From positions 1-35,981 of the IMG/VR virus record IMGVR_UViG_2563366990_000012: 35,981 nucleotides of DNA, one strand, 5' to 3'. Numbering within the stretch: position 1 is the first letter of the stretch; every line of letters starts with the position of its first letter. Shown here in pieces: positions 14,937 through 35,981 of this stretch. Origin of the DNA: a virus (Duplodnaviria; Heunggongvirae; Uroviricota; Caudoviricetes). Made by a program: the position numbers and the translations under genes. Under the pieces are notes generated by a model. That model was not told where the DNA came from. It saw only the letters and a program-made list of their open reading frames with translations, and did not search any database.

Positions 14937-15019
14937 GCGTGTGAGATTGCACAATATATAAAAGTTATGCTATCTGGATTCATTTGTAGAACGACCATAC
15001 AACATTCGAGGAGAGCGTA

Positions 15020-15805
15020 ATGTTCAGTGATAATGTGATTAATGCGTGGTGGTTTATCTCTTTGTATCTATTTTTATTAATAGCATTAACATTTGTTACC
15101 TTTGGTAAAAGTAATCTTATGAGGTTTATTGCACATCATTTCAATCTTGAGTATTCAGACAGAAAGTTAAAAATGCTCGACAAAAAATGGCGCGACATTC
15201 AACTATTTAAAACAATTAACGGAATCAATGTATCAGGCATCGAAGATGTGAGAATGATACAGCAGGGGCTGATTGATGGAAAACTAAAAACATCGTATTT
15301 TTTCCTTACTCGCTTCTGGGGTGACATAACAAAACCACCACACATAATTAAAACAATAATTGTAATTCTGGCCAGTATTATTTATATTCTCTTCGCATGT
15401 TATATACACAACAAACAATCCGCTATAGTAAGAGATGCCATAGGCATACCATATAAAAATATGATGTACTATGTTTATAGTGACAAAGTTCTTTTATCCT
15501 TCAAAAATAAAACAGTTGAACTTAATAAAACTTATAGCCTTGCCGATTGCAAGACCCTGCAAAACGTATTTATAAAAGACACACTTCCTGAAATCGCCTG
15601 CAATAAGCTCTTACAGCTAAACGAGGAGGACTCCGAATGGTTAAGTCAGGAGATTAAAGATAATAACAGCCACAAAAAAGCATTATTAATACTATCCCTC
15701 GTCTATTTCATTTCAGGCCTGCTTATATTCCTGTCATATACAAAATTCCTTTACGCCAATAAGAAGGTTTTAGAATACAAAGCATCAAATAAAAACCACT
15801 CATAA
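15020..15805 (+). CDS. AT-rich predicted membrane protein, 261 aa, at the P2 orf30 position between V and S
   Basis: AGGAGA 5 nt upstream of ATG; three hydrophobic segments (AWWFISLYLFLLIALTFVTF, IIKTIIVILASIIYILFACYI, ALLILSLVYFISGLLIFLSY); about 28-30% GC; opposite strand to flanking late genes. Confidence 0.7.
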   Translation: MFSDNVINAWWFISLYLFLLIALTFVTFGKSNLMRFIAHHFNLEYSDRKLKMLDKKWRDIQLFKTINGINVSGIEDVRMIQQGLIDGKLKTSYFFLTRFWGDITKPPHIIKTIIVILASIIYILFACYIHNKQSAIVRDAIGIPYKNMMYYVYSDKVLLSFKNKTVELNKTYSLADCKTLQNVFIKDTLPEIACNKLLQLNEEDSEWLSQEIKDNNSHKKALLILSLVYFISGLLIFLSYTKFLYANKKVLEYKASNKNHS

Positions 15806-15811
15806 ACCTCT

Positions 15812-15846
15812 AAACATTGAGCGACCAGCACGGCCGCTCAATGTTT
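15812..15846. terminator. Bidirectional hairpin terminator between the membrane-protein cargo gene and S
   Basis: Perfect 12-bp inverted repeat AAACATTGAGCG ... CGCTCAATGTTT with an 11-nt loop, followed by AATT. Confidence 0.6.
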
Positions 15847-15876
15847 AATTGCGCATCAGCCTCTGCCTGGATAAAA

Positions 15877-16329
15877 CTAACGCTCAAGGTGAGCCAGGAT
15901 AGTCTCTTCAATCATCTGCACATCCTCACCGGTAAAGCCGAGCAGGGGACGCGCCGGATAATCAATTTTCTTACCGTCTTTCCGGTTTTCTTCCGACAGG
16001 CCGAACTGATGCACGCTGGCGATTTTTGGTGACTTCCCGCCGTAAAATTCCATTGATGCCTGTTCCGGGCTGGCGCGGATATGCAAAAAGCGACTGGTGA
16101 TAAGTTTCGCAAACATTTTTCGCTTAACACGACCGGTCTTTTTTCTGGCGCTCTGCTGCTGGCGTGGCGCGTAGGGTGTGCCGTCCGGGGCTTTCTGTGC
16201 CATCACCCGACGCTGCTGACTCTGACGCAGACGTTTCGCCAGTTCGGTACTCAGTCGTCGACGCCCTGACGGTGACAGCGACTCAATCAGTCCGGTCAGC
16301 CGGTCTTCAAAACGCTTAAACTCATTCAT
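15877..16329 (-). CDS. S: Tail completion protein gpS, 150 aa
   Basis: Position and length match P2 S. Confidence 0.88.
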   Translation of the reverse strand: MNEFKRFEDRLTGLIESLSPSGRRRLSTELAKRLRQSQQRRVMAQKAPDGTPYAPRQQQSARKKTGRVKRKMFAKLITSRFLHIRASPEQASMEFYGGKSPKIASVHQFGLSEENRKDGKKIDYPARPLLGFTGEDVQMIEETILAHLER

Positions 16330-22077: not shown

Positions 22078-22250
22078 TGTCAGGAGTCCTGAATAGTGAT
22101 TAGAGGAGTCACATGTCGGCATCAGTTTCCCGACGATGCGCATCCTCCGCCATCAGTCCCGGATGGCTTATCACTGACACAACAGCACCTTAGCGAATCG
22201 CGGGACGCGACTCAGTAGCCTTGCCGTGTATTTATCACGGCGAGGTATTC
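22078..22250. promoter_or_regulatory. Divergent late promoter region (PO leftward for O-N-M-L-X-lysis-R-S; PP rightward for P-Q), expected Ogr-dependent
   Basis: Intergenic region between divergent O and P genes; assignment from P2 organisation. I did not identify an exact TGT-N12-ACA Ogr element. Confidence 0.5.
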
Positions 22251-24023
22251 ATGACCATCACCACAGACACCACTCTTTTACACGACCCGCGTCGTCAGGC
22301 GGCGCTGCTGTACTGGCAGGGATTTTCCGTGCCGCAGATTGCCGCCATGTTGCAGATGAAACGCCCGACGGTGCAGAGCTGGAAACAGCGCGACGGCTGG
22401 GACAGCGTTGCCCCCATCAGCCGTGTCGAAATGAGTCTGGAAGCGCGGCTGACCCAGCTCATCATCAAACCGCAGAAAACCGGCGGGGACTTCAAGGAAA
22501 TTGACCTGCTGGGACGCCAGATTGAACGACTGGCACGGGTCAACCGTTACAGCCAGACCGGCAACGAGGCAGACCTTAATCCGAACATTGCTAACCGCAA
22601 CAAAGGTGGGCGTCGCAAACCGAAAAAGAATTTTTTCAGTGACGAAGCCATCGAAAAGCTGGAGCAGATTTTCTTTGAGCAGTCTTTCGACTATCAGTTG
22701 CACTGGTATCGCGCCGGGCTTGAGCACCGCATCCGCGATATCCTGAAATCCCGCCAGATTGGCGCGACGTTTTATTTTTCCCGCGAGGCGCTGCTGCGCG
22801 CCCTGAAAACCGGTCATAACCAGATTTTTCTGTCGGCCAGTAAAACGCAGGCGTATGTGTTCCGCGAATACATCATCGCCTTTGCCCGGCTGGTTGACGT
22901 TGACCTGACCGGTGACCCGATTGTCCTGGGCAATAACGGCGCAAAACTGATTTTTCTCGGCACCAACTCCAACACCGCACAGAGCCATAACGGCGACCTG
23001 TACGTCGACGAGATTTTCTGGATCCCGAATTTTCAGGTACTGCGTAAGGTGGCATCAGGTATGGCCTCACAGAGTCACCTGCGTTCGACCTATTTCTCCA
23101 CCCCGTCCACGCTGGCGCACGACGCCTACCCGTTCTGGTCGGGTGAACTGTTTAACCGGGGACGCGCCAGCGCCGCCGAACGCGTGGAAATCGACGTCAG
23201 TCATAACGCCCTTGCCGGTGGACTTCTCTGTGCGGACGGCCAGTGGCGGCAGATTGTCACCATTGAGGACGCCCTGAAAGGCGGCTGCACGCTGTTCGAC
23301 ATTGAGCAGCTCAAACGCGAAAACAGCGCCGACGATTTTAAAAACCTGTTCATGTGTGAATTTGTTGACGACAAGGCGTCGGTGTTCCCGTTCGAGGAGC
23401 TGCAACGCTGCATGGTCGACACGCTGGAAGAATGGGAAGACTATGCGCCGTTTGCCGCGAATCCGTTCGGCTCCCGCCCGGTATGGATTGGTTACGACCC
23501 GTCACACCGTGGCGACAGCGCCGGATGCGTGGTACTGGCACCGCCGGTGGTGGCCGGTGGCAAATTCAGAATACTTGAGCGTCACCAGTGGAAAGGCATG
23601 GACTTTGCCACTCAGGCTGAATCCATCCGCAAACTCACCGAGAAATACAACGTCGAATACATCGGTATTGATGCCACCGGCCTCGGTGTCGGCGTGTTCC
23701 AGCTCGTGCGCTCGTTCTATCCCGCCGCACGCGACATCCGCTACACGCCGGAAATGAAAACCGCAATGGTGCTCAAGGCAAAAGACGTCATCCGCCGTGG
23801 CTGTCTGGAATATGACGTCAGCGCCACCGACATCACCAGCTCGTTTATGGCTATCCGCAAGACCATGACCAGCAGCGGACGCAGCGCCACCTATGAGGCC
23901 AGCCGCAGCGAGGAAGCCAGCCACGCCGACCTCGCCTGGGCGACCATGCACGCCCTGTTAAATGAGCCACTCACCGCCGGTATCAGCACCCCGCTGACAT
24001 CCACCATTCTGGAGTTTTACTGA
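22251..24023 (+). CDS. P: Terminase large (ATPase) subunit gpP, 590 aa
   Basis: MTITTDTTLLHDPRRQAALLYWQGFSV...; track ORF trimmed by 10 codons to the P2 P length. Confidence 0.92.
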   Translation: MTITTDTTLLHDPRRQAALLYWQGFSVPQIAAMLQMKRPTVQSWKQRDGWDSVAPISRVEMSLEARLTQLIIKPQKTGGDFKEIDLLGRQIERLARVNRYSQTGNEADLNPNIANRNKGGRRKPKKNFFSDEAIEKLEQIFFEQSFDYQLHWYRAGLEHRIRDILKSRQIGATFYFSREALLRALKTGHNQIFLSASKTQAYVFREYIIAFARLVDVDLTGDPIVLGNNGAKLIFLGTNSNTAQSHNGDLYVDEIFWIPNFQVLRKVASGMASQSHLRSTYFSTPSTLAHDAYPFWSGELFNRGRASAAERVEIDVSHNALAGGLLCADGQWRQIVTIEDALKGGCTLFDIEQLKRENSADDFKNLFMCEFVDDKASVFPFEELQRCMVDTLEEWEDYAPFAANPFGSRPVWIGYDPSHRGDSAGCVVLAPPVVAGGKFRILERHQWKGMDFATQAESIRKLTEKYNVEYIGIDATGLGVGVFQLVRSFYPAARDIRYTPEMKTAMVLKAKDVIRRGCLEYDVSATDITSSFMAIRKTMTSSGRSATYEASRSEEASHADLAWATMHALLNEPLTAGISTPLTSTILEFY

Positions 24024-25057
24024 TGAGCAAGAAAAAAGGGAAAACACCGCGACCAGCGGCAAAAACAATGACCGCCAGCGCCCCGAAAATGGAGGCATTC
24101 ACCTTTGGTGAGCCGGTGCCGGTACTCGACCGCCGTGACATTCTGGATTACGTCGAGTGCATCAGTAACGGCAGATGGTATGAGCCACCGGTCAGCTTTA
24201 CCGGTCTGGCAAAAAGCCTGCGTGCTGCCGTGCATCACAGCTCACCGATTTACGTCAAACGCAATATTCTGGCCTCAACATTTATCCCGCATCCGTGGCT
24301 TTCGCAACAGGATTTCAGCCGCTTTGTGCTGGATTTTCTGGTGTTCGGTAATGCGTTTCTGGAAAAGCGCTACAGCACCACCGGTAAGGTCATCAGACTG
24401 GAAACATCACCGGCAAAATATACCCGCCGTGGTGTTGAGGAGGATGTTTACTGGTGGGTGCCGTCCTTCAACGAGCCGACACCTTTCGCGCCCGGCTCCG
24501 TGTTTCACCTGCTGGAGCCGGATATTAATCAGGAGCTGTACGGCCTGCCGGAATATCTCAGCGCCCTTAACTCTGCCTGGCTGAATGAGTCGGCCACGCT
24601 GTTCCGCCGCAAGTATTACGAAAACGGCGCGCATGCCGGATACATCATGTACGTCACCGATGCCGTGCAGGATCGCAACGATATCGAAATGCTTCGCGAA
24701 AACATGGTGAAGTCGAAAGGCCGCAATAACTTTAAAAATCTGTTTCTCTATGCCCCACAGGGGAAAGCCGACGGCATTAAAATTATCCCGCTCAGTGAAG
24801 TGGCAACGAAGGACGATTTTTTTAATATCAAAAAAGCCAGCGCCGCTGACCTGCTGGACGCGCACCGCATCCCCTTTCAGTTGATGGGCGGCAAGCCGGA
24901 GAACGTCGGGTCGCTGGGTGATATTGAGAAAGTGGCAAAGGTCTTTGTCCGCAATGAGCTTATCCCGTTACAGGACAGGATCCGCGAGATAAACGGCTGG
25001 CTCGGTCAGGAGGTCATCCGCTTTAAAAACTACTCACTGGACACTGACAACGACTGA
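24023..25057 (+). CDS. Q: Portal (capsid vertex) protein gpQ, 344 aa
   Basis: Start overlaps the P stop (ATGA); length equals P2 Q. Confidence 0.92.
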   Translation: MSKKKGKTPRPAAKTMTASAPKMEAFTFGEPVPVLDRRDILDYVECISNGRWYEPPVSFTGLAKSLRAAVHHSSPIYVKRNILASTFIPHPWLSQQDFSRFVLDFLVFGNAFLEKRYSTTGKVIRLETSPAKYTRRGVEEDVYWWVPSFNEPTPFAPGSVFHLLEPDINQELYGLPEYLSALNSAWLNESATLFRRKYYENGAHAGYIMYVTDAVQDRNDIEMLRENMVKSKGRNNFKNLFLYAPQGKADGIKIIPLSEVATKDDFFNIKKASAADLLDAHRIPFQLMGGKPENVGSLGDIEKVAKVFVRNELIPLQDRIREINGWLGQEVIRFKNYSLDTDND

Positions 25058-25226: not shown

Positions 25227-25245
25227 GTGCTTTCCCCGCCTCGCC
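25227..25245. other. P2-type cos site (19-nt cohesive end sequence GGCGAGGCGGGGAAAGCAC, present here as its reverse complement)
   Basis: Exact match to the P2 cohesive end as I recall it, in the expected place between the Q-proximal end and the old/tin-position cargo. Confidence 0.8.
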
Positions 25246-25392
25246 CGCCCGCTTCATGCAGGGCTTTAAATGCAGTGCAGCAGTAATGGTTAGAATGCGC
25301 CAGCACTGATGTTAGATACCAGAACTGGCATTTAAAAATGAATGCAAATAAATGCACCAAACTAATTACTTACTGACAAAAAATAAGTAAAA

Positions 25393-26277
25393 TCAGGCGC
25401 AAGTTGGCATTGAGACCCCTTTCAGGGTATTAGGAATAATTATTTCAGGAGAAAAAATCATCACTTCCTCTCCAGATTTTTTGAGATGCGCTGTATATTG
25501 CAATGAATACTCAACTTGCGGAAATCCATTATAAATATCTTTAATTTCCTTAGCGTTATCATAAGAAACAAGCCAATTTGGGAAATTAATTTCTGTGAGT
25601 TTCTTCATAACCAATACATGGTCATCATGCTCATAAAAATTCCTGTAAAGCCCTTGCCCTTTAATATAGTAAGGAGGATCCAAATACAAAAGAATTTTAT
25701 TTTTATCCACCTTTCCCATATTATCCATAAAATTCAAGGCATCAAGAAAATCCAAAGCATCCAGATTAGTTACTACTATTCTTTGATTATAATTTGCTAT
25801 CTTCTCAATTCTTGAAATTAAATCCGCCCTGTTAAAGCGAACATCCATTTTCCATTTTCCATTTTGTGATTTCCCGCCTATAACCCCCGCCTTGAGAATA
25901 CCTGAACGATTTGTTCTATTTAAGAAAAACGCAGCAAAGCCAACCTCAAGCTTAGTAAACTCAGAAGGATTCGAAATAACATAGCGATGAAAAGACCATT
26001 CATCCATATCTATCTTTGCTCGGCTAATAAGTCGGCAAAGCTCATCAGTATCACTAACAACAGATGACCAAAAAGAATAAACAGCAAAATCTGCATCATT
26101 TATATAGATTTTACGGACATACTCTTCCAATAATAATTCTAAAGCCACCCCTGCACCACCAGCGTAAGGTTCTGCATATGCTCCATCATTCAACGAGTTT
26201 TTTTCAATAACATCTTTTAAAAAGTAAGATAACTTACCTTTCCCGCCGGGGTATCTTAATGGAGTATAAAATTTCAT
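25393..26277 (-). CDS. Dam-family (alpha-class, D12-like) N6-adenine DNA methyltransferase, 294 aa
   Basis: N-terminal PLRYPGGK and SAM-binding EPYAGGAGV motifs, catalytic DPPY (LLYLDPPYYIKG) near the C-terminus; GAGG 6 nt upstream of ATG; about 33% GC. Confidence 0.85.
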   Translation of the reverse strand: MKFYTPLRYPGGKGKLSYFLKDVIEKNSLNDGAYAEPYAGGAGVALELLLEEYVRKIYINDADFAVYSFWSSVVSDTDELCRLISRAKIDMDEWSFHRYVISNPSEFTKLEVGFAAFFLNRTNRSGILKAGVIGGKSQNGKWKMDVRFNRADLISRIEKIANYNQRIVVTNLDALDFLDALNFMDNMGKVDKNKILLYLDPPYYIKGQGLYRNFYEHDDHVLVMKKLTEINFPNWLVSYDNAKEIKDIYNGFPQVEYSLQYTAHLKKSGEEVMIFSPEIIIPNTLKGVSMPTCA

Positions 26278-26314
26278 AAATCCCTCTCATTCCTGATTTT
26301 GTAGTTTATCAGTT

Positions 26315-26332
26315 TCTGGACATCCATGTCCA
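26315..26332. promoter_or_regulatory. Perfect palindrome CTGGACAT-CC-ATGTCCAG between the ParB-like gene and the methyltransferase gene
   Basis: 8-bp arms and 2-bp centre in the 70-bp intergenic spacer; candidate operator or attenuator hairpin. Confidence 0.5.
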
Positions 26333-26346
26333 GATGTAGACAAATC

Positions 26347-27852
26347 TCACTCACTCCAAATAAGGCTTAATAACAACTCAAAGTTATCCCACTCAGTGTT
26401 GACAGCCTCTTTTGAGGGAATTAAGTGTGGGTTATGTACATACTGCTGCAATGAACCATCATGTTTAGTTATTTGGCTCGAGAAAGTTATTACAGCCGTA
26501 CATTGACTCCCCGTCATCTTTTTATTTTCCCGAAGGAAATTAGCACACATTTTAACCTTATCATGAAGCCCTGGAGTTCTATGTGGTTCCTTAAATTGTA
26601 ACTTGTTTTCTTCAACAAAAGTGCTTACAGAGAGATCTATAAATATTCTCAACAATATTGAGATAGCATTAGGGGTGTTATCAAATGTCAGATGCGACTT
26701 AAGCTCATTAAATATTCTAGAGCATTTCTTATGCCCTCTAAAATTAAATTTCACATAAGATGGCACCAACACATTACGATCTACTTTAGGAGGAGTTTTT
26801 CCCTTGTTTTTATTCTGTTCCGTACCCGAAACTTTAGATTTACTCTCTTCTGTGCCTACATGTCTAGAATAATCATCTTCCTGTTTATCCACACCTGTAT
26901 TCTTTAAGGCATCACCTTCTGAAAGACCTACTTTCTTTACACTCACAGATGCATCATTTTTGTCAATAGAATCATGTTTTTTCTCTGTAAGAAAAGATTT
27001 AGGCTCCAGTAAACTCCACGGCTTATCTAAAAGAGATTCTGAAGGTTTTATTTTTTGTTCAATAATAAATGTAACCCTGTCATCTTGGCTACGAATCCTA
27101 TTAACAGTAAAACAAGCCTTACCTTTATCATCCTCTTCAATCATTACATCTAAAATATTTTTTAATTGTGCACAAAAACGTTCATAAGGCTGATATGAGT
27201 ATAGAACTCCATTAATGCTTTTTAAATTAAAATAATCCCTCACCTTTAAATCACCAAAAAGACGCGTGATGTTTGTGATTTTTAAAAGTCTTTTTTTAGC
27301 AATTATCTCTTTATATAAATCAGTATTGAACTCTATAAATGTAAGTATTTGATTACCAAATGACTGCTTACCCATCCTAGCCAGATGTCGTGCTTTTTCT
27401 GTTGCAGTCCATTCAACTCTTCCAACTCCAGCATTTTGACCAGTATGCTTTAAATTGACCCAATGCTCATATTCATCATCGTCAAAAAGAACGCAGTTAT
27501 CTATAACATTAATATCTTTAAGCTGAGTAATCTTAAGTTTTTCAAAAGCTTTCCGTGCTTTTTCTGTTGGTGCAAGTCTAGGAGAGTGTAAAAGTTTAAG
27601 GGCTGTAACTCGACGATTACCTTCAGCAACGACGAAAAACCCAGATTCCTCTTCACTAGGATAAACTAATATGTTTTCAGACGGATCTAAACCTTTCGAA
27701 GCAATATCTTTAGCCAAGCGATAAATGCGGTCGTACTGCAAGTCAAGCATCTTGGCAATAGCATCACGCTGATTTTCTGCTGACGTCGGGAAACGAGGGT
27801 TATCAACATCCAAAAGTAACTTATTGATATTCATTGATTTTAGTTGATTCAT
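26347..27852 (-). CDS. ParB/Sulfiredoxin-like domain protein with a large uncharacterised C-terminal region, ~501 aa
   Basis: N-terminal ParB-like motif (LLDVDNPRFP ... FFVVAEGNRRVTALKLL), Lys/Glu-rich low-complexity linker, about 170-aa C-terminal domain. Start placed at MNQLKS, 7 nt after AGAGGA; the ORF could start up to 27921. Confidence 0.7.
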   Translation of the reverse strand: MNQLKSMNINKLLLDVDNPRFPTSAENQRDAIAKMLDLQYDRIYRLAKDIASKGLDPSENILVYPSEEESGFFVVAEGNRRVTALKLLHSPRLAPTEKARKAFEKLKITQLKDINVIDNCVLFDDDEYEHWVNLKHTGQNAGVGRVEWTATEKARHLARMGKQSFGNQILTFIEFNTDLYKEIIAKKRLLKITNITRLFGDLKVRDYFNLKSINGVLYSYQPYERFCAQLKNILDVMIEEDDKGKACFTVNRIRSQDDRVTFIIEQKIKPSESLLDKPWSLLEPKSFLTEKKHDSIDKNDASVSVKKVGLSEGDALKNTGVDKQEDDYSRHVGTEESKSKVSGTEQNKNKGKTPPKVDRNVLVPSYVKFNFRGHKKCSRIFNELKSHLTFDNTPNAISILLRIFIDLSVSTFVEENKLQFKEPHRTPGLHDKVKMCANFLRENKKMTGSQCTAVITFSSQITKHDGSLQQYVHNPHLIPSKEAVNTEWDNFELLLSLIWSE

Positions 27853-27873
27853 CAACATATCCTCTGTTGAATC

Positions 27874-27906
27874 TTTATGATAAAAATTAATTATTTTTAT
27901 CATAAA
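27874..27906. promoter_or_regulatory. 33-bp inverted repeat (13-bp perfect arms TTTATGATAAAAA / TTTTTATCATAAA) in the 5' leader of the ParB-like gene
   Basis: Read directly from the sequence; centred about 35 bp upstream of the preferred start codon. Confidence 0.55.
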
Positions 27907-28208
27907 TGATAGCGTAAACATAGTCTTATGAACGACATCAGCCCTGAAGCTTCAAAACTATCATTTACGTTTGCGAGGCACCATCTATCACATTGATTTA
28001 TAATAAGTATCTTTATCTTCACTGCATTGCTCTCAAAAAATCACATAGATGGAAATTCCCCGTTGACACACTCCCAAGTGATGCAGATACATTTCAAGTG
28101 CTTCATACACATGATAACGGCTATCCCCCTAAATTCTGTGCGTTTCTTTTCCCTCCAGCACAAGGTTGAAATATCTTGCGTGCAGCTTTACTTTGTGAAT
28201 CTTTGTCA

Positions 28209-30494
28209 TTATATCCGCGCCATTACTGTTGAGAATCCCGGCCACTCATCAGCGACCGGGTACGTGAATTTTTTCCCGTCATAATTTACGGTCGCGCCAC
28301 GCGCCAGCGCCTCAAGCTCCCATCGCTGCGGCCTGATACCGTTCTGAGCAAGGTCAACGCGGATACGGGTAATTTGCATTCTTTCCGACCGGGTCAGTCT
28401 GGCCGATGGTGCAATTTCATGTGGTTTTAACGGGCTTCCGTTTCTCTGCTGACGATTTGGGGTTCTCAGCCCGTATTTTAATGCGCCCCTGAGCGCCCTC
28501 ACGACCTCCGGGTCATTCCATTCGATAACACCGTCATCAACCAGATTAAGCACTGCTGCGGCGTGTTCAGAAGGTGTGGGAGCCGGTAACGAAGTATCAC
28601 CACCGGTGAGCTTTCCACAGTTATTGACAGGACTCCGAGGCGCGGCGATGCCGCTTTTTAAAGTCAAAGGCTGAACGACCGGAACTTTCGGCACAATGCG
28701 CCAGTCCGTCGTTCTGGTGATACGAATATGACGCGCGCCGAGATGCGGCGCGTAAATGCCGACCACTCTCTCGACCTCTTCCTCGTACTCGTTAACGTCA
28801 TCCGAGGGGCTACGGGCGACCCTGACAGTCTGGCAATCGCGCGGGACATTTGCCCCACCCTGCGCGCTGATATACAGCGCAAAATCGCCACTGTCTGCGG
28901 CAGCGCGTGCAGCCTCGACGCGTTCGTCAAACTCATCAGCAATGCTGACGCCGCGAGGCAATTTGCGTAGTTCACGGTAAGCCCCCATTGTCGGCAGGCC
29001 AACCGTTTTAAATTGAGGAATGCGCCACGTTGACGCCCATGCGGTAACAGCCGCGGCAGTGTCTTTCAGCGGCCTGCCGGTGTCGTTATCGAGCTGACCA
29101 TCCAGTGCATAGCCATCGATGTTTTTTGAAATGTATTTCGCGATATATCCCGCAGCACCGCCCCGGTTAAGGTGTTTTGCCTGAAAACGGTTTCGCGCGG
29201 CTCCTCTTTCGTCGCCATCCTCTTTGAGCGCGTAGCGACGCATGATTTCGATAATCTGATTACGCTGGCGTGGATTACAAAAAAGCATCATATGCCAGTG
29301 CGGCGTTCCGTCGTGGTGTGGCTCGACGACACGCAAACCGTAGACCTGTAAATCATTATCCTTGAATGCCGTGCGCATCAGGCTCCAGATGCGGCAGAGA
29401 TAACGCTGCGCATCCTTTGGATTAAATGCCTCATCGTTCCAGCCGTGATTAAGCTGCACGGTTTTACTTTCGCCTTTTCCGACCTGACGTGTCGGGTGAT
29501 ACTTTGACGGTGCGGTCAGCGTGATAAACATCCCCACATCGCCCTCTGCGGCGGCGTAACGCTCAATACCGGCAATGGTGTTCATCAGCTCCATCCGGCG
29601 AATTTCAGGATTAGAAATACTGCCCATCACCTTACTGATAAGGTCGATGCGCTCGCCGGTTTCCCTGTTTTCGAGGTCACACGATTTAAGAAATTCCAGA
29701 TTTGCCTGGCGGCGCGCACGCACATCACGAATGGCATGTTTACTGGCATAAGGAGAACGGTCTTTATTGACCTCCCCGACAGCAATCAGTAACGCCTCAT
29801 GCCAGCGCATACGCTGGCCTTTAAGCTGACTAATCCACCACTCATCGTTAAACAGACGGGCAATGGCAGAATATGCCTGCCTCGTGGTCATCTGCCCTTT
29901 ACGGTATTTTTTCCAGTAGAGCGGGGAAATATTGAAAGCACGTGCAGCGCCAGCGACATGACCATACAGGTGAGTCTGCGCCTCATCCGTAAACAGCGAT
30001 TCTTTTTCGCCATGTGCATCCACCCAGGCATCGCAGAGTTCCTCATACATCATGAAAAGCTGCGATGAGATACGGGCGGCAAACTTTTTCAGCTCCTTGT
30101 CATTCATTCCAGGCAGGCGCGCATAATGGTCACGCTCTGCCAGAAACAGCAACGACGCGTCGGTGTTCATTTCATGGCGCTGATTCACGCGCTCAATGCG
30201 CGGCCATAAACGACGCTGAAAAGTGGATGTGAGGAAATAAAACCCGTGCACCGGGCTTTTATTGCGCCGGATGTAGTCATAACGTGAAGTAAACAGCGAG
30301 CGCAAAAAGTAAGGCAGGCGGTTAATCGTGGATAAAACACCTTGCACCTGACGCATCTCGTCACGTGTAAGGGGTCTTTCGCGCCCGACAGCCTCGCGTG
30401 GCGCGTTCCATGCATAAGCACCGGTAATCGCCTTACCGGTGCCTGCGGCAAATGCTGACGGAGGGACAAAACGCCCGGAGGCTTTAACGGCCAT
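28209..30494 (-). CDS. A: Replication initiation protein gpA (rolling-circle nicking endonuclease), 761 aa
   Basis: MAVKASGRFVPPSAFAAGTGK... with HUH-type endonuclease region (PHWHMMLF) and active-site tyrosine region (GYIAKYISKNIDGY); track ORF trimmed by 14 codons. Confidence 0.92.
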   Translation of the reverse strand: MAVKASGRFVPPSAFAAGTGKAITGAYAWNAPREAVGRERPLTRDEMRQVQGVLSTINRLPYFLRSLFTSRYDYIRRNKSPVHGFYFLTSTFQRRLWPRIERVNQRHEMNTDASLLFLAERDHYARLPGMNDKELKKFAARISSQLFMMYEELCDAWVDAHGEKESLFTDEAQTHLYGHVAGAARAFNISPLYWKKYRKGQMTTRQAYSAIARLFNDEWWISQLKGQRMRWHEALLIAVGEVNKDRSPYASKHAIRDVRARRQANLEFLKSCDLENRETGERIDLISKVMGSISNPEIRRMELMNTIAGIERYAAAEGDVGMFITLTAPSKYHPTRQVGKGESKTVQLNHGWNDEAFNPKDAQRYLCRIWSLMRTAFKDNDLQVYGLRVVEPHHDGTPHWHMMLFCNPRQRNQIIEIMRRYALKEDGDERGAARNRFQAKHLNRGGAAGYIAKYISKNIDGYALDGQLDNDTGRPLKDTAAAVTAWASTWRIPQFKTVGLPTMGAYRELRKLPRGVSIADEFDERVEAARAAADSGDFALYISAQGGANVPRDCQTVRVARSPSDDVNEYEEEVERVVGIYAPHLGARHIRITRTTDWRIVPKVPVVQPLTLKSGIAAPRSPVNNCGKLTGGDTSLPAPTPSEHAAAVLNLVDDGVIEWNDPEVVRALRGALKYGLRTPNRQQRNGSPLKPHEIAPSARLTRSERMQITRIRVDLAQNGIRPQRWELEALARGATVNYDGKKFTYPVADEWPGFSTVMARI

Positions 30495-30759
30495 ATGAGC
30501 CAAAAGCCTCAGAACAACGCTTGCTGAGTTGCTCAACCTGCGCGTTTAAATCAGCAAAAGACTTTGCGCTTCCGGTCAGAATATCGTGATGCATCAGGCC
30601 GGAAACGAGCTGGCTTAATTTCGGGTAATAACCAACCACCGCCAGCCATTCCTGCCCGGCGTTTTTACCGCTTTCCGCTCTCTTTTTCTCGTGGAGAATA
30701 AACTGAAAGCTGTCACTGGTAACGACATAACGTTCGCCAATTTCGATACGAATACTCAT
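30484..30759 (-). CDS. Hypothetical early protein (P2 orf83 position), 91 aa
   Basis: Compact ORF directly upstream of A, overlapping stop/start junctions with neighbours. Confidence 0.6.
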   Translation of the reverse strand: MSIRIEIGERYVVTSDSFQFILHEKKRAESGKNAGQEWLAVVGYYPKLSQLVSGLMHHDILTGSAKSFADLNAQVEQLSKRCSEAFGSYGR

Positions 30760-30980: not shown

Positions 30981-31285
30981 TACCAGCTCCTTTTGTCGTT
31001 CAGCTTCTTAAATTCATCAGCGCAATAGCTGGCGATTTCTGTCGTTAATTTTGTCAGTTCATCCACGGATGAAATTTGCTTGTGGAATACAGCACGTTTA
31101 ACAAGTAAATTGACCACATCAGACAGGAGGTTTAATTCATTCTGATAAATCGCGATAACAGATTCAGTTATGTCGCGCTTTTCTTTATCAAGACAAAGTT
31201 GAATAAGAGACAAATCACCATTTTCCATAACGGCGATTTTTAAGGCGTTATTCAGTAATACAACTGAATGAGAACAGGACATCAA
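30980..31285 (-). CDS. Hypothetical early protein (P2 orf81 position), 101 aa
   Basis: ORF with start/stop overlaps in the early operon. Confidence 0.55.
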
Positions 31286-31506
31286 AGTACCTCCCCGCGA
31301 GACAATCCGATATTGTGAAATTTTTCCGACTCCTGACTGAGCAGCTCGACTATCTCCACGCGGGATAACTCCGCCTTTGTGATGTGGCGAATCATGGCGT
31401 CAAGATGAGAAGAAAAGCGCGTAGCTGCATCTGCCTGTGCTTCGGTTCTGGCCTGTTGCAGCAGTAATGCGTATTTACCGCACTGATTTTCAGAAACTGT
31501 ATGCAT
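31282..31506 (-). CDS. Hypothetical early protein (P2 orf80 position), ~74 aa
   Basis: ORF in early operon order; start uncertain (MHTVSENQ chosen). Confidence 0.5.
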
Positions 31507-31569
31507 GACTTTCTCCAGGCAAAAAGAAGCCCCGCACAATTAAGTGCGTTAAAAACTCTGGTTAATTAC

Positions 31570-32076
31570 TTAATGCAGATATTGCTCTGGTTTTACCGAT
31601 GTCAGAATTGTCGGTGCATACTCAAACAGACTGAATAATTCACGTAATGCACGGAATAAAGCATCACGCCAGTAACATGATTCTTCATTAATTCGCCAGT
31701 ACGGCTGGTTGAATTCTTTTTCTGTCAGTCGTGCGTGCATAAATAAAGTACGACGCTGGCTGACTGTTAAAAAACTAATATATGCATACTCACTTGCACC
31801 AACCTGACGGCGTTTTGAGAATGCCCCACGCAATTCATCAATTGCACATACCAGTCGTTCACGTTCGACGTCGTTCATTTCTTCAAAACGCATCGTTGCG
31901 TGACGCTGTTTTAACTGCGCATGAAAGCAAACCGTTAGCCGTTCGCGTTCCATCATCTGATTATAATAATCGCATGTCTCCTGCCAGCGAGGGACGGCCA
32001 GATGCTTACCAATTATCCGGCGCATAGTTGCTGGCTGTTTTTCAACGAGATTGAGCGTCATCACTGTCATTTCCAT
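31570..32076 (-). CDS. B: Replication protein gpB, 168 aa
   Basis: Position between cox/orf78 and orf80, length similar to P2 B. Confidence 0.8.
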   Translation of the reverse strand: MEMTVMTLNLVEKQPATMRRIIGKHLAVPRWQETCDYYNQMMERERLTVCFHAQLKQRHATMRFEEMNDVERERLVCAIDELRGAFSKRRQVGASEYAYISFLTVSQRRTLFMHARLTEKEFNQPYWRINEESCYWRDALFRALRELFSLFEYAPTILTSVKPEQYLH

Positions 32077-32261
32077 ACCCTCCGGCTTTTCAGAAAGGTC
32101 AGAGCCTTTTTTAACGGACTCTGTTTTTTGGTGCGGATAATGATTCCCTTACGCCCCTTACCGTGGGTGATGGTGAAGTCAATCGCCCTGGGGCTTTCGT
32201 TACGCAATAACTGAGCAATACAACGAGGCTCATTCATACGGTTCTCCTTAACGTGGTTCAC
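32067..32261 (-). CDS. Small basic hypothetical protein (P2 orf78 position), 64 aa
   Basis: Short ORF between cox and B; start uncertain. Confidence 0.4.
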   Translation of the reverse strand: MNHVKENRMNEPRCIAQLLRNESPRAIDFTITHGKGRKGIIIRTKKQSPLKKALTFLKSRRVWK

Positions 32262-32523
32262 CGAGACCTAACCACATCAACCAGCCGTCACGAATCTCTT
32301 TAGGACGGCTTTCATAAGCCAGTTTTAGTCCGTTATTCCATGCCGGAAGGTATACCCAATATTCACCAGCACGCCCCGATACTGACTGAGGGTCAGTAAT
32401 CTCAATAACTGGTAATTTCCCTTTCTCAATCATACCCCTTACAGCTCTTGGAGTTTTACCAATGAGTTTTGCAAACTCCTGATAAGGCACGGCATCAGTC
32501 ACGCTTACAAGCTGTCTATTCAT
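32248..32523 (-). CDS. cox: Cox excisionase / Pc repressor, 91 aa
   Basis: PYQEFAKLIGK...GKLPVI...GRAGEYWVYLPAWNNGLKLAYESRPKEIRDGWLMWLGLGEPR closely matches P2 Cox as I recall it. Confidence 0.9.
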   Translation of the reverse strand: MNRQLVSVTDAVPYQEFAKLIGKTPRAVRGMIEKGKLPVIEITDPQSVSGRAGEYWVYLPAWNNGLKLAYESRPKEIRDGWLMWLGLGEPR

Positions 32524-32644
32524 CTGCTACGATTCTCCCTTAGTGCTTCTAATGGCTCCTAATGGCTAATTATTGCCTAAAAGGATAACTCCAGAAGCAC
32601 AACATTTCACACTATCAGCAAGAAATTACGCAATCGGAGTAATT
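32524..32644. promoter_or_regulatory. Pe/Pc divergent promoter-operator switch region between cox and C
   Basis: Contains the direct repeat CTAATGGCT at 32549..32557 and 32559..32567, consistent with P2 C repressor binding direct-repeat operators. Confidence 0.55.
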
Positions 32645-32944
32645 ATGTCAATAGACGTTTCGGAGAAGTTGAAGCTAATCCGTGAATCTGAAAGGTTAAA
32701 CCGTAAAGAATTCAGTGAATTAACTGGTGTAGCCTACAGCTCACTTTCGAGCTATGAGAGCCGGTCAAAAAACGCTGGAGTTGAAGCCATAATGAAGGTC
32801 TTACAACATCCTAGATTTACTAAATATACTTTGTGGTTCATGACTGATCAGGTAGCTCCAGAAGCCGGGCAAATTGCGCCCGCTCTCGCACACTTTGGGC
32901 AAAACGAAACAACGTCGCCCCACTCCGGTCAAAAGACTGGTTAA
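32645..32944 (+). CDS. C: Immunity repressor C, 99 aa
   Basis: C-terminal half FTKYTLWFMTDQVAPEAGQIAPALAHFGQNETTSPHSGQKTG matches P2 C; start trimmed from the TTG-initiated track ORF to the in-frame ATG at 32645. Confidence 0.88.
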   Translation: MSIDVSEKLKLIRESERLNRKEFSELTGVAYSSLSSYESRSKNAGVEAIMKVLQHPRFTKYTLWFMTDQVAPEAGQIAPALAHFGQNETTSPHSGQKTG

Positions 32945-33059
32945 CAATTTATCGTGAATATATTCATCACAAGTGCCTACTATTGGTGGCTAAATTTCAG
33001 CCACCACGAAAAAAGCGATTAGTAGTAGCAAAAAAAAGTACCACTCGGAGGGTTTTCTG

Positions 33060-34073
33060 ATGGCAATCAAAAAACTCGATGATGGTCGATATGAAGTGGA
33101 CATCCGCCCTACTGGACGTAACGGAAAACGCATCCGTAGGAAGTTTGATAAGAAAAGCGAAGCTGTCGCTTTCGAAAAATACACGTTGTACAACCACCAC
33201 AATAAAGAATGGCTATCAAAACCAACAGACAAACGACGTCTGTCGGAACTGACACAGATCTGGTGGGATTTAAAGGGTAAACACGAAGAGCATGGGAAAT
33301 CTAATCTTGGAAAAATTGAAATCTTCACAAAAATAACGAATGACCCATGCGCATTTCAAATCACGAAATCCCTTATCAGCCAGTACTGCGCCACCCGAAG
33401 AAGTCAGGGTATTAAACCTTCGAGTATCAATCGTGATTTAACATGTATTAGCGGCATGTTTACAGCCCTGATTGAAGCGGAGTTATTCTTTGGTGAGCAC
33501 CCTATCAGAGGGACAAAGAGGCTTAAGGAGGAAAAACCAGAAACAGGCTATCTCACACAGGAAGAAATTGCCTTACTGCTTGCTGCTCTTGACGGCGACA
33601 ACAAAAAGATTGCGATTCTTTGCCTGAGCACTGGAGCACGTTGGGGAGAAGCAGCTCGTTTGAAAGCAGAAAATATCATCCATAACCGCGTCACGTTTGT
33701 TAAAACGAAAACAAACAAACCACGCACCGTCCCGATCTCAGAGGCTGTTGCCAAAATGATCGCGGATAACAAACGAGGTTTTTTATTCCCTGATGCTGAT
33801 TACCCTCGCTTCAGACGAACAATGAAAGCAATAAAACCGGATTTGCCAATGGGGCAAGCCACACATGCACTAAGGCACAGCTTTGCCACTCATTTCATGA
33901 TTAATGGAGGAAGTATTATCACGCTACAACGGATACTAGGTCACACGCGGATTGAGCAAACTATGGTTTACGCTCATTTTGCGCCAGAGTACCTTCAGGA
34001 CGCCATTTCTCTTAATCCGCTAAGAGGTGGTACTGAGGCCGAGAGTGTCCACACAGTGTCCACAGTAGAGTAA
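33060..34073 (+). CDS. int: P2-type tyrosine integrase, 337 aa
   Basis: C-terminal catalytic region with ...HALRHSFATHFM... and ...LGHTRIEQTMVYAHF... (R-H-R-Y signature); adjacent to the att core. Confidence 0.92.
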   Translation: MAIKKLDDGRYEVDIRPTGRNGKRIRRKFDKKSEAVAFEKYTLYNHHNKEWLSKPTDKRRLSELTQIWWDLKGKHEEHGKSNLGKIEIFTKITNDPCAFQITKSLISQYCATRRSQGIKPSSINRDLTCISGMFTALIEAELFFGEHPIRGTKRLKEEKPETGYLTQEEIALLLAALDGDNKKIAILCLSTGARWGEAARLKAENIIHNRVTFVKTKTNKPRTVPISEAVAKMIADNKRGFLFPDADYPRFRRTMKAIKPDLPMGQATHALRHSFATHFMINGGSIITLQRILGHTRIEQTMVYAHFAPEYLQDAISLNPLRGGTEAESVHTVSTVE

Positions 34074-34152
34074 CGTTTAAGGGCTTTCAGTGGTAATTTA
34101 TGCCGCTCAAACCCGCATTGTACCGTTGAAAGCCCCTACTGGTGACACCCTA

Positions 34153-34180
34153 AATCTCCCTTACACGGGCTTATTTTTTA
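34153..34180. repeat. Prophage att core, right copy (int-proximal, attL-type junction)
   Basis: Exact 28-bp repeat of 1507..1534. Confidence 0.9.
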
Positions 34181-34349
34181 TACATAAACCATAGAGACGG
34201 ATTGATCCCAGGTCACCGTCTTCCATTGACCACATCGATAGAATCTCCCTTCATAGCACGATGCCTTTCACTTATTGGCATCGTGCTCGCACAGGTTCCG
34301 GTTACGCACAGCCAGAACGCGCATGTTTGATGCTTACCAAAAAATATTC

Positions 34350-34667
34350 TCACTCTCCACATTTGAATGTCAGACGAGCGACGCCATGTAATCCTGCACC
34401 TTCTGTCTTCAGGTCAACTATCTGCATTTTTTTGCCCTGAGTAACACAGAAATGAACTGCATCATTTTTTACTATATTTTCTGCACCAGATATTCTACCC
34501 CTGGCTAAAGAAGCTTCGGCTTCGGTGTAGTATTGGTTATCGAGTTTACGCTGAATATTACTTTTATATGCAAGACCAAATTTACCGATACTTGTCTCAT
34601 CATTATGTACAGCACACCCAGACATAAGAAAAACACTAATTAATGATATAGCAGCTATCTTTTTCAT
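34350..34667 (-). CDS. yegR: Small exported protein YegR, 105 aa
   Basis: MKKIAAISLISVFLMSGCAV signal/lipobox-like N-terminus; host neighbour of yegS. Confidence 0.8.
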   Translation of the reverse strand: MKKIAAISLISVFLMSGCAVHNDETSIGKFGLAYKSNIQRKLDNQYYTEAEASLARGRISGAENIVKNDAVHFCVTQGKKMQIVDLKTEGAGLHGVARLTFKCGE

Positions 34668-35081
34668 CTCACCTTCCCCCATTAAATACCAACGACACGC
34701 TCTGGTGTTTAAATATAATAATGGCATGATTATTATAATTGAATAGGATTATAATAAATGTTCTGTACAACATTTCCTACATAAGTAGGAATTACATACA
34801 CGGATGCCCTTCCAGGTAACCCCATGGGGGGGTTAATATATTTTTAATAGTATATTGAAGATGCCACTGTTTAGTTGAATATTAGGTATATGTTCTTTTT
34901 TGAAATTTACCGGTGGCTACCGTTAATATTCGCTGTTCCCATTGCAAGCTCCTGGTGGTAACCACTGAATCCTCCATACTTGAACTGACTTTTTATCCTC
35001 CGACTTTCATCCTGTTCTGACTCCACCTTTTCTTTTCTGCTCTACACTATCTACAGTCCAATCATAAAGGCACATACGATC

Positions 35082-35981
35082 ATGGCAGAATTTCCCGCCA
35101 GCTTACTGATTCTTAATGGCAAAAGTACTGACAATCTACCCTTGCGCGAAGCAATTATGCTGTTGCGTGAGGAAGGAATGACGATCCATGTGCGGGTCAC
35201 CTGGGAGAAAGGCGATGCCGCACGATATGTAGAGGAGGCACGGAAGTTGGGCGTCGCAACGGTGATTGCCGGTAGTGGCGATGGCACCATTAATGAAGTT
35301 TCTACGGCGTTGATTCAGTGTGAGGGGGATGACATACCCGCGCTGGGAATTTTACCATTAGGAACCGCCAATGATTTTGCCACCAGTGTAGGGATTCCTG
35401 AGGCACTGGATAAGGCGCTGAAACTGGCAATTGCCGGTAACGCCATTGCGATAGATATGGCGCAGGTCAATAAACAAACCTGTTTTATTAATATGGCGAC
35501 AGGCGGGTTTGGGACGCGTATTACCACAGAAACGCCGGAAAAATTAAAAGCCGCGCTGGGTGGCGTCTCTTACATCATTCATGGCTTAATGCGCATGGAC
35601 ACTCTGCAACCGGACCGTTGTGAAATCCGCGGTGAAAACTTTCACTGGCAAGGTGACGCCCTGGTCATTGGTATTGGTAACGGGCGTCAGGCCGGTGGCG
35701 GTCAACAATTGTGCCCGAACGCGTTAATTAACGATGGCTTGCTGCAACTGCGCATTTTTACCGGCGATGAAATTATTCCGACTCTCGTATCAACCTTAAA
35801 ATCTGACGAAGATAACCCGAATATTATCGAAGGAGCTTCGTCGTGGTTTGATATACAAGCCCCACACGAAATCACTTTTAATCTTGATGGCGAACCGTTG
35901 AGTGGGCAAAACTTCCATATTGAAATACTTCCGGCGGCGTTGCGTTGTCGATTACCACCAGATTGTCCATTGTTGCGTTAA
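35082..35981 (+). CDS. yegS: Lipid kinase YegS (DAG-kinase-like fold), 299 aa
   Basis: [15 protein letters not shown]... with GGDGT-type motif ([11 protein letters not shown]); full length. Confidence 0.9.

Follow-up and report, generated by a model that had tools for sequence, protein, structure and literature searches.

Which system do the two AT-rich genes between cos and the replication gene of this P2-like prophage encode, and how might they act? The original prediction saw in them a candidate undescribed defence or epigenetic system. The cassette is in fact already known, and is essentially the reference allele at its reference location. We put the probability that it is an allele of PD-λ-5 at about 95%. 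PD-λ-5 is a two-gene anti-phage system from a P2-like prophage of E. coli ECOR7 that was found, cloned and validated by Vassallo, Doering, Littlehale, Teodoro & Laub 2022 (Nat Microbiol), and that entered the PADLOC and DefenseFinder libraries in 2022-2023 as 'PD-Lambda-5'. All coordinates refer to the window, i.e. the whole stretch of 35,981 nucleotides that was analysed (Table 1).

The locus and its two genes

The cassette site, between cos and replication gene A, is the P2 orf91/tin/old hotspot, and the prediction of two co-directional AT-rich genes at this place held. Low GC (0.31-0.40) spans about 25250 to 28130 in the composition of the window, against 0.52-0.60 on both sides, and the neighbours fit, with the terminase and portal genes on one flank and the replication endonuclease on the other. 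Next to the portal gene we read a 19-nt sequence that we take to be the P2 cos core. At the opposite end, the orf91/DUF3850 remnant, annotated in RefSeq as a frameshifted and incomplete DUF3850 pseudogene, is the scar left by cargo replacement. The cargo island matched none of 50,697 phage records, while its flanks do match P2-like phages. The window has another AT-rich island near 15 kb, which we considered as extra cargo and rejected, as it is the ordinary P2 orf30 homologue.

Table 1. Features of the PD-λ-5 locus and its surroundings (window coordinates; aa numbers follow the 501-aa PD-λ-5A).
Feature	Position	Strand	Details
Terminase P	22221..24023	+	One flank of the cassette
Portal Q	24023..25057	+	Same flank as terminase P
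Presumed 19-nt P2 cos core (cohesive end, reverse complement)	25227..25245		GTGCTTTCCCCGCCTCGCC, read in the window
AT-rich cargo island	25250..28127		GC 0.31-0.40, flanks 0.52-0.60
PD-λ-5B gene, D12-class (Dam-family) N6-adenine DNA methyltransferase, 294 aa	25393..26277	-	Catalytic motifs intact
A-B intergenic spacer	26278..26346	-	69 bp; A and B on the same strand
PD-λ-5A gene (501 aa + stop)	26347..27852	-	ParB-type N-terminal module, disordered linker, HEPN-like C-terminal domain
PD-λ-5A aa 353-501, HEPN-fold domain	26350..26796	-	Non-canonical active-site signature
PD-λ-5A aa 291-352, linker	26797..26982	-	Variable, acidic, low-complexity, predicted disordered; pLDDT 30-38
PD-λ-5A aa 126-290, helical middle region	26983..27477	-	W131..H136-T-G-x-N-x-G142-x-G..W148 loop (invariant); conserved T193/R197 helix
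PD-λ-5A aa 1-125, ParB/Srx NTP-binding fold	27478..27852	-	Box I-like N18-P-R20; Box II (P-motif) E77-G-N-R-R81
23-codon in-frame 5' extension of the ORF	27853..27921	-	Probably untranslated
Upstream non-coding region of the PD-λ-5A gene	27853..28127	-	Native promoter region
orf91/DUF3850 remnant	28128..28209	-	26 codons, reading MTKIHKVKLHARYFNLVLEGKETHRI, then stop
P2 A-type replication endonuclease	28209..30536	-	Other flank of the cassette

The long ORF of the larger gene (26347..27921, minus strand) counts 524 aa from its first ATG. Homologues and family profile alike start at M24 of this ORF, RefSeq annotates the same 501-aa CDS (WP_001072651.1, 'ParB N-terminal domain-containing protein'), and a GAGGA ribosome-binding site lies upstream of the ATG-TTG-ATG at the M24 start. 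All three point to M24 (27852) as the true start, in agreement with the length of about 501 aa first proposed. The native promoter must sit in 27853..28127, given that the equivalent 272 bp upstream of A sufficed in the promoter-less vector of the reference clone. A promoter-like TTTACG-17-AATAAT is found at 27918..27890 (minus strand), overlapped by the 5' extension of the ORF. Promoter-like sites around the cassette are no more numerous than expected from shuffles, and promoter and terminator scans of the region are uninformative because their counts equal that expectation.

Identity with PD-λ-5

Both proteins match their PADLOC profiles over the full length. The larger one hits PD-Lambda-5_A (PDLC03998) at 6.3e-168, with aa 24-523 of the long ORF aligned to profile positions 1-465 of 466, and the methyltransferase hits PD-Lambda-5_B (PDLC04018) end to end at 1.4e-121, as well as MTase_II at 3e-103. 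The methyltransferase is identical to RCQ13838.1 of the ECOR7 reference at 292/294 positions (99.3%), the two substitutions relative to the reference being A180V and V288G. These matches overturn the views that the system was undescribed and that the large protein had no named defence counterpart, since it is PD-λ-5A. The proposal of a defence cassette is borne out by the same matches and by the protection that the ECOR7 system confers (Vassallo et al., 2022).

The two loci are alike in gene content, order, orientation and span length, and nothing substantial differs. The genes span 2460 bp here, the same as in the reference (ECOR7 QOWS01000001:264599-267059; RCQ13837.1 and RCQ13838.1), and occupy the same P2 hotspot, with portal/cos on one side and replication gene A on the other. 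With HHpred, Vassallo et al. placed ParBc at aa 6-89 and saw hints of a HEPN type at aa 388-418 and 469-498, coordinates that also agree with a protein numbered to 501 aa. The equal span, this shared numbering and membership of an E. coli cluster of 408 members with at least 90% identity suggest indirectly that PD-λ-5A is a close match to ECOR7 RCQ13837.1. Public assemblies contain the identical PD-λ-5A sequence in 657 blocks, ECOR7 not being among the ten placements listed, and 22 complete genomes are natural carriers.

The experiment that had been proposed for this locus, cloning about 25300..28200 under the native promoter and challenging with a phage panel, has already been done by Vassallo et al. 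(2022) with an equivalent fragment, which took in 272 bp of upstream sequence before A and 428 bp of downstream sequence after B, under its native promoter in MG1655 delta-mrr. ECOR7 PD-λ-5 protected broadly, against all but one of 10 phages and most strongly against T-even phages, a breadth that is unusual for 2.5 kb. Phage resistance is known for the ECOR7 allele, and is predicted from sequence for the allele described here. In Table S1 of that work the entry for the reference system reads 'Escape plaques: No'; the screen had itself selected for this absence, so that arguments drawn from it are weakened. The class of PD-λ-5 (Abi vs direct immunity) is shown in figure panels and not in the text, legends or tables of the paper, whose text does not name the gene(s) required for defence either. 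When the searchable library was queried for later work on the mechanism of PD-λ-5 or for a new name, it yielded only citations of the 'compact RM/Abi' idea, and the ParB/HEPN plus methyltransferase architecture is described neither in the P2 hotspot paper (Rousset 2022) nor in a 2025 ParB-CTPase survey.

Protein architecture, homologues and related systems

Pfam and NCBIfam gave nothing useful for the large protein, a per-member Pfam scan of the A family yielded only weak DUF5677, DUF4145 and Csm6-HEPN hints, and a PDB sequence-profile search with the family alignment returned chance matches only. In Foldseek comparisons, the best structural matches of the N-terminus are KorB and ParB (probability 0.99-1.0), with alignments covering 210-306 columns and hence extending past the Srx core. 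The original assignment to the ParB/Srx type is supported, and its GNRR motif is read directly in the sequence; N18-P-R20 and G78-N-R-R81 are invariant in the family alignment. As modelled, the N-terminus resembles the NTP-binding DNA clamps ParB and KorB, with which it has the fold and both motifs, Box I and Box II, in common. It departs from these CTP-dependent clamps in that PD-λ-5A lacks a ParA partner, shows nothing recognisable as the C-terminal dimerisation domain of ParB, is fused to HEPN, and carries an invariant KH-T-G-x-N-x-G loop in place of the Box III region. The nucleotides bound by ParB folds include CTP, ATP or GTP (2025 ParB-CTPase survey).

Homology to a plasmid-partition protein, which was to count against a defence role, was looked for: the score with TIGR03454 is 14.2 bits, far below the cut-off of 201.5, and the genes around PD-λ-5A encode the methyltransferase, portal and replication functions, with no parA among them. 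Together with the HEPN fusion, this led us to reject PD-λ-5A as a plasmid-partition ParB. Beyond the ParB module, aa 126-290 may hold an HTH-like DNA-binding part; the AF2 model of this region is confident save for aa 141-144, and H136, G142, W148 and R197 show 100% conservation. The columns of aa 291-352 vary in length and cannot be aligned among homologues.

The C-terminal domain has the four-helix HEPN fold. Its signature consists of R402-x3-(E/D)406 in helix-2, a conserved pair of basic and acidic residues, and Y471-x-H473-N474 at the end of helix-3, where H473 occupies the canonical HEPN His position and is 95% conserved. Rx4-6H is absent from the helix-3 end, with no Arg 4-6 residues upstream of H473 except in a minor clade. 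The string 'RTPGLH' (aa 425-430) was considered as an HEPN Rx4H and rejected, as it lies within the helix-2/helix-3 insert and is conserved only in a close subfamily. HEPN families with the His and without the Arg exist, e.g. Parep1/8 and c2405 (Anantharaman 2013). With the canonical Arg missing, the domain may lack catalytic activity and serve, for instance, in regulation or oligomerisation.

The smaller protein had been taken for a Dam-family methyltransferase with PGGK, EPYAGGAG and DPPY motifs, and we read them as P10-G-G-K13, E36-PYAGGAG-43 (SAM-binding) and D200-P-P-Y203 (catalytic), with a Pfam PF02086 match at 3.6e-16. The Dam orthologue model TIGR00571 ('dam') scores 47 bits, below its cut-off of 114.85. 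The use of a delta-mrr host in the reference work points to a non-GATC site, and PD-λ-5B is presumably active in vivo and non-GATC-specific; here we assume that Mrr would restrict the new m6A pattern of B and that such a host was therefore required.

A search for homologues established that the A-B pairing is obligatory. A D12 methyltransferase is adjacent in 52/52 full-length A homologues, found among 78 viral loci, in 45 cases co-directional, with spacers of 8-111 bp, and in 7 convergent. A and B co-diverge (rho 0.85). Desulfoluna, a Vibrio prophage and a MAG carry the pairing as well, and locus L003 places it outside prophages. Wherever downstream sequence is available, an intact full-length A has a D12 methyltransferase nearby: at L080 the adjacent one has decayed and a second lies 2.9 kb downstream. 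The A protein of L076 lacks the HEPN domain, and a gene for a separate ATPase-Toprim protein stands between those for A and B, a replacement that fits an exchangeable effector on a constant core of sensor and methyltransferase. The 52/52 pairing with its co-divergence, the L076 variant and the ParB/KorB clamp likeness are what the present analysis adds to the known system.

Three kinds of known systems invite comparison. Those described in Anantharaman 2013 share the combination of a ParB-superfamily protein, HEPN and a DNA methylase, and a multi-pronged defence logic; here it is compressed to two genes, without an hsdR/S-type restriction complex, and the HEPN domain lacks Rx4-6H. PD-T4-2, an E. 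coli defence system from the same screen as PD-λ-5, also pairs a ParB-superfamily protein with a HEPN protein, but it splits the modules over two proteins, uses DUF262 (DGQQR type) as its ParB-type domain and lacks a methyltransferase. Type II R-M systems with D12 (Dam-family, alpha-class) methyltransferases likewise have a stand-alone D12 enzyme beside its partner, co-directional or convergent. PD-λ-5A differs from their nucleases in having no PD-(D/E)xK, HNH, GIY-YIG or PLD fold; no recognised restriction-nuclease fold appeared in it, with no Pfam match and structural matches to ParB/Srx and HEPN only. The PD-λ-5 reference further differs from these systems in its lack of escape plaques and its activity on T-even phages.

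How the cassette may act

The R-M-like or methylation-dependent logic suggested at the outset is supported as the leading idea. In the version that we favour, tentatively and at somewhat less than even odds, the methyltransferase marks self, the ParB module senses and HEPN is the effector. PD-λ-5B would be an active non-GATC N6-adenine methyltransferase that tags resident DNA as self. PD-λ-5A would be a sensor-effector fusion, in which the ParB/KorB-type N-module binds a nucleoside triphosphate via the invariant NPR and GNRR motifs and the helical region after it binds DNA, the protein engaging DNA that lacks the mark. Engagement would license the C-terminal HEPN-like domain (H473 plus R402 and E/D406) as a metal-independent RNase, which would halt translation and phage development, leading to an abortive or growth-arrest outcome and not to classical DNA restriction. 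T-even phages resist most R-M systems, so that their strong restriction, together with the lack of high-frequency escape plaques, is easier to reconcile with an RNase or Abi output than with DNA cleavage at specific sites. Handles for a study of mechanism are the confidently modelled ParB/KorB-like sensor module with its invariant NPR and GNRR, the HEPN-fold domain with a conserved triad (R402, E/D406, H473) instead of Rx4-6H, the strictly co-inherited methyltransferase, and the natural variant in which HEPN is swapped for an ATPase-Toprim effector.

ParB-superfamily domains can nick DNA, nicking members of the ParB/Srx group being known, and the N-domain of PD-λ-5A may then be the true effector. 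A compact 'RM + Abi' arrangement is the reading of Vassallo et al. (2022) themselves, repeated in PMC10799925, which we regard as possible though doubtful. The first line would be the ParB-like domain, a restriction DNase nicking or cutting incoming DNA that is unmethylated, and the second line HEPN, a PrrC-like RNase that fires only once restriction has been blocked or overwhelmed. So strict a linkage to a methyltransferase is what R-M systems typically show. Among the arrangements in Anantharaman 2013 are fusions of ParB to HEPN as well as operons in which a HEPN gene stands with a ParB nuclease and a DNA methylase, and the PrrC analogy was itself proposed there. However, no recognised nuclease-specific residues set the N-domain apart from NTP-binding ParB clamps, and its best structural matches are CTPase clamps. 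The phages restricted best are those that withstand most R-M systems, and the epigenetic escape plaques expected of restriction are not recorded in Table S1. Locus L076, moreover, gains another nuclease-type partner upon HEPN loss, suggesting that the N-module alone is not a sufficient effector.

The methyltransferase linkage, kept even at L080 through the second copy, would also suit an addiction module of toxin-antitoxin type or a phage-benefit epigenetic cassette, with A as a toxin curbed by B or as a KorB-like regulator of B, the best structural match KorB being a transcriptional repressor clamp. The main role would be prophage stabilisation or the shielding of P2 DNA from host restriction, with phage exclusion as a side effect. 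Anti-restriction is often the role of phage-borne methyltransferases, and the 2025 ParB-CTPase survey speculates on it for ParB-methyltransferase fusions. We consider this unlikely, since the A-B pair is also found outside prophages, and both the conservation of a HEPN effector and its exchange for ATPase-Toprim are traits of defence systems.

Host DNA is degraded by T-even phages, against which protection is strongest, and A could conceivably be a nucleotide-gated alarm for the destruction of self DNA instead of a foreign-DNA sensor or a restriction enzyme. Methylated deoxynucleotides from the B-methylated chromosome would bind its ParB/Srx pocket, the fold being a versatile nucleotide binder, and switch on a non-canonical, Arg-less HEPN RNase; the methyltransferase would then make the danger signal and not a self-protection mark, which would account for its being obligatory without epigenetic escape. 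A recent precedent is the PUA-Cal-HAD defence system of ECOR28, reportedly triggered by m6-dAMP from phage-induced chromosome degradation. We find this reading very unlikely, as it is purely analogical with no sequence feature pointing to a methylated-nucleotide pocket, E. coli Dam already makes m6-dAMP so that a dedicated methyltransferase seems unnecessary in this host, and the helical region past the ParB core looks like a DNA-binding domain.

A known defence cassette beside cos

The original prediction described two co-directional AT-rich genes near cos in a P2-like prophage, and this was confirmed in full at the sequence level: both are minus-strand ORFs, every motif it named is there (GNRR in the large protein; PGGK, EPYAGGAG and DPPY in the methyltransferase), and GC is 0.31-0.40 across ~25250-28130 against 0.52-0.60 either side (window composition), with P2-like prophage genes on both flanks. 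The large gene likely starts at the ATG at 27852 (M24 of the long ORF), giving a protein of 501 aa, because the PD-Lambda-5_A family profile and the homologues begin at M24, RefSeq holds a 501-aa CDS in identical DNA, and a GAGGA ribosome-binding site stands before ATG-TTG-ATG. Upstream, the start of an orf91 remnant overlaps the stop of the P2-type replication gene A (TAATG). Its 26 codons are all that survives, the remainder of P2 orf91 having been replaced through cargo insertion.

Features of the window and of the large protein (PD-λ-5A, 501-aa numbering)
Feature	Position	Strand	Length	Remarks
P2 orf30 homologue	15020..15805	+	261 aa	97% identity with P2
Terminase P and portal Q	end at 25057	+		P2-like flank
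cos core	25227..25245		19 nt	sequence read in window; presumably P2 cos
Methyltransferase ORF (PD-λ-5B)	25393..26277	-	294 aa	
Large-protein ORF (PD-λ-5A)	26347..27921	-	524 aa	counted from first ATG
orf91/DUF3850 remnant	28128..28209	-	26 codons	DUF3850/ASCH-like; RefSeq pseudogene in identical prophages
A-type replication endonuclease	28209..30536	-		flank beyond orf91 remnant
HEPN helix-2	aa 394-415 of PD-λ-5A			R402-x3-(E/D)406, conserved throughout the sequences listed
HEPN helix-3 end	Y471-x-H473-N474 of PD-λ-5A			
HEPN helix-4	aa 481-498 of PD-λ-5A			

The pair had also been proposed as a candidate undescribed defence or epigenetic system, its large protein unmatched, from sequence alone, to any named defence protein. 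That it is a defence cassette holds, and that it is undescribed does not: in the PADLOC search that had been suggested, the large protein matched PD-Lambda-5_A (PDLC03998; 6.3e-168, profile positions 1-465 of 466) and the methyltransferase PD-Lambda-5_B (PDLC04018; 1.4e-121), both end to end. PD-λ-5 is among 21 systems obtained by functional selection across 71 E. coli strains (Vassallo et al., 2022; PMC9519451). It comes from ECOR7 (QOWS01000001:264599-267059; RCQ13837.1 and RCQ13838.1, labelled 'ParB/HEPN, methyltransferase') and was cloned with its native promoter on a low-copy vector that has no promoter of its own, in an MG1655 strain deleted for the mrr region, where the pair conferred broad phage resistance and no high-frequency escape plaques were recorded (PMC9519451). 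The cloning and phage challenge that had been called for were thus already carried out on PD-λ-5 by Vassallo et al. (2022), with a positive result.

The window methyltransferase is identical to RCQ13838.1, the PD-λ-5B reference, at 292/294 positions (99.3%), and the two genes span 2460 bp versus 2461 by the authors' coordinates. Their HHpred matches for PD-λ-5A (ParBc aa 6-89, DUF4145 aa 388-418, HEPN_RiboL-PSP aa 469-498) agree with the 501-aa numbering, and the upstream end of their clone, 272 bp 5' of the PD-λ-5A gene, falls at the island boundary, the orf91 remnant. We infer, rather than read from an alignment, that the window's large protein is the equivalent of RCQ13837.1. Since both component profiles match, the genes are adjacent, the location agrees and the methyltransferase shares 99.3% identity with its reference, the cassette is a PD-λ-5 member, and hence an already known defence system.

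At ≥99.8% identity the cassette was found in 22/5,426 complete E. coli genomes, with an unchanged genomic context in each genome listed; the exact PD-λ-5A protein occurs in 657 blocks of public assemblies, and no deposited phage genome carried the cassette among 50,697 records. Two E. coli loci, L012 (GCA_020221435.1) and L014 (GCA_025638545.1), hold the exact PD-λ-5A and the methyltransferase in prophage remnants with the adjacent portal/terminase missing. The methyltransferase is followed in L012 by an Ogr/Delta gene and then a PFL/glycyl-radical gene (host pflB-like), and in L014 by a P2 capsid gene. In these two loci decaying prophages keep the cassette.

Domains of the two proteins

A confident AlphaFold model of PD-λ-5A was obtained from 44 aligned homologues that share 29-78% identity with the window protein. 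Its pLDDT averages 79.6, and confidence drops over a long stretch only at aa 291-352, a disordered linker. Residues 1-290 match ParB/KorB CTP-dependent clamps (Foldseek probability 0.99-1.0, 210-306 alignment columns). Conservation was scored over 63 non-redundant family members with identity down to ~25%, and 100% was reached by N18 and R20 (ParB Box I-like 'NPR'), G78-N79-R80-R81 (Box II / P-motif), H136, G142 and W148 in a K-H-T-G-x-N-x-G-x-G loop, and R197 on a short helix in the helical region after the ParB core. The ParB fold binds CTP, ATP or GTP, varying by protein (PMC12704722), and the invariance of the Box I and Box II residues implies that this module would bind a nucleotide; its KorB/ParB-like helical extension suggests that it would bind DNA as well. 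A partition ParB was rejected: the protein reaches 14 bits where the cut-off is 201.5, is HEPN-fused and has no ParA.

The C-terminal part was mapped onto the HEPN topology of Anantharaman et al. (2013). It has the HEPN fold, with H473 at the canonical catalytic His position (95% conserved), and it lacks the Rx4-6H motif, the Arg of which is absent. Such a His-without-Arg pattern exists in other HEPN families, Parep1/8 and c2405 (Anantharaman et al., 2013). An RTPGLH string (aa 425-430) was discarded as an Rx4-6H candidate, lying in the helix-2/helix-3 insert and being conserved among close relatives only. Conservation of R402, E/D406 and H473 within the fold suggests a putative RNase site, working and non-canonical.

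PD-λ-5B is a D12-class methyltransferase (PF02086) with intact motifs. It falls under the NCBIfam 'dam' cut-off (47 bits vs 114.85), and its closest solved relative is 7m6b (2e-12). The Mrr enzyme attacks DNA with certain m6A patterns and leaves Dam-methylated DNA alone. PD-λ-5 was cloned in a delta-mrr host (PMC9519451), and we infer that PD-λ-5B is active in vivo and produces a non-GATC m6A pattern.

Gene pairing, natural variants and a proposed mechanism

Among 78 IMG/VR loci, a D12 methyltransferase is directly adjacent to 52/52 full-length PD-λ-5A homologues, co-directional in 45 (gaps 8-111 bp) and convergent in 7. The convergent pairs (gaps 11-123 bp) are in the distant loci L053, L054, L055, L057, L067, L069 and L077, and co-transcription is therefore not needed for the pairing. 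The order of large gene then methyltransferase is kept in Desulfoluna (47% identity), in a Vibrio prophage (38%), where the locus adjoins a cI-type repressor, and in a MAG (29%), where phage genes are absent nearby. N-terminal-only matches are mostly longer ORFs whose C-termini diverge, and in these the methyltransferase again comes next downstream. Identities of the two proteins to those of the window co-vary (Spearman 0.85, n=40), PD-λ-5B being more conserved by 18 points on average. On the strength of this order, adjacency, co-variation and the N-terminal-only matches, the two genes form a unit; where downstream sequence was available, no intact full-length PD-λ-5A lacked a nearby D12 methyltransferase. 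Truncated versions of 333 and 280 aa (L062:1705-2706 and L063:1722-2564) comprise the ParB module only, with HEPN missing and no methyltransferase within 2.5-4 kb, and are probably decayed remnants; that of L062 is flanked by two tyrosine-integrase genes.

Two loci depart from this architecture. In L076:3983-7742 (UViG_3300005264_001020) the large protein is 365 aa long, ending with the ParB-type module and lacking HEPN. A separate 538-aa AAA_15/ATPase-Toprim protein, which matches the PADLOC models for ATPase-Toprim, GajA and AriA, is encoded next, and a PD-Lambda-5_B methyltransferase comes third. PADLOC has no dedicated model for this three-gene variant, which looks like an effector swap. 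Because the separate ATPase-Toprim protein replaces HEPN here, the variant suggests that the C-terminal domain of PD-λ-5A is an exchangeable effector on a constant core of ParB module plus methyltransferase. A DUF4062 protein is encoded directly upstream. In L080:3950-9013 (UViG_649633047_000001) a full-length PD-λ-5A precedes a stop-broken D12 methyltransferase pseudogene (~5590-6050), with an AAA_15 ATPase (561 aa) and an intact D12 methyltransferase downstream. Two methyltransferase-linked modules may be stacked here, and the downstream methyltransferase might compensate for loss of the upstream one.

Computational catalogues have listed ParB, HEPN and methylase together since 2013 (Anantharaman et al., 2013), and our literature search turned up no work on the mechanism of PD-λ-5. 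The system is compact and unusually broad, and the value of the locus lies in its bearing on mechanism, conserved residues and natural variants being direct handles for tests. We favour, with a probability of roughly 0.4, a model in which PD-λ-5B would mark self DNA, the ParB-type module would sense and engage unmarked DNA in a nucleotide-dependent manner, and this engagement would license the HEPN domain to cleave RNA, leading to growth arrest or abortive infection. Such a model would explain the strict methyltransferase linkage, the missing epigenetic escape and the activity against T-even phages, which have DNA that most restriction enzymes fail to cut. The main rival, 'compact RM + Abi', was put forward by the discoverers of PD-λ-5 and takes the ParB domain for a DNase and HEPN for a PrrC-like back-up; Anantharaman et al. 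proposed the like where HEPN genes lie within R-M systems, and for this cassette we hold it to be somewhat less probable than the favoured model. Two minor alternatives are a module for addiction or regulation and a nucleotide alarm derived from the methylome, the latter with a precedent in m6-dAMP sensing by a PUA-Cal-HAD system. A classical Type II R-M system was rejected, as its partner protein would have a restriction-nuclease fold, whereas PD-λ-5A has none.

Low-GC regions elsewhere in the window

A second sharp AT-rich island (14950-15850, GC 0.32-0.36) adjoins the tail-completion S gene (15877..16329, minus strand) and, on its other side, baseplate spike V, as annotated in matching P2 records. 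It is not new cargo, since its orf30 homologue is standard P2 content; the protein has hydrophobic, membrane-like segments and matches no Pfam or PADLOC family. In the last 5 kb (31000-35981), beyond the early genes upstream of replication gene A, GC falls to 0.41-0.44; either the prophage's immunity/integrase end or neighbouring host DNA may lie here.
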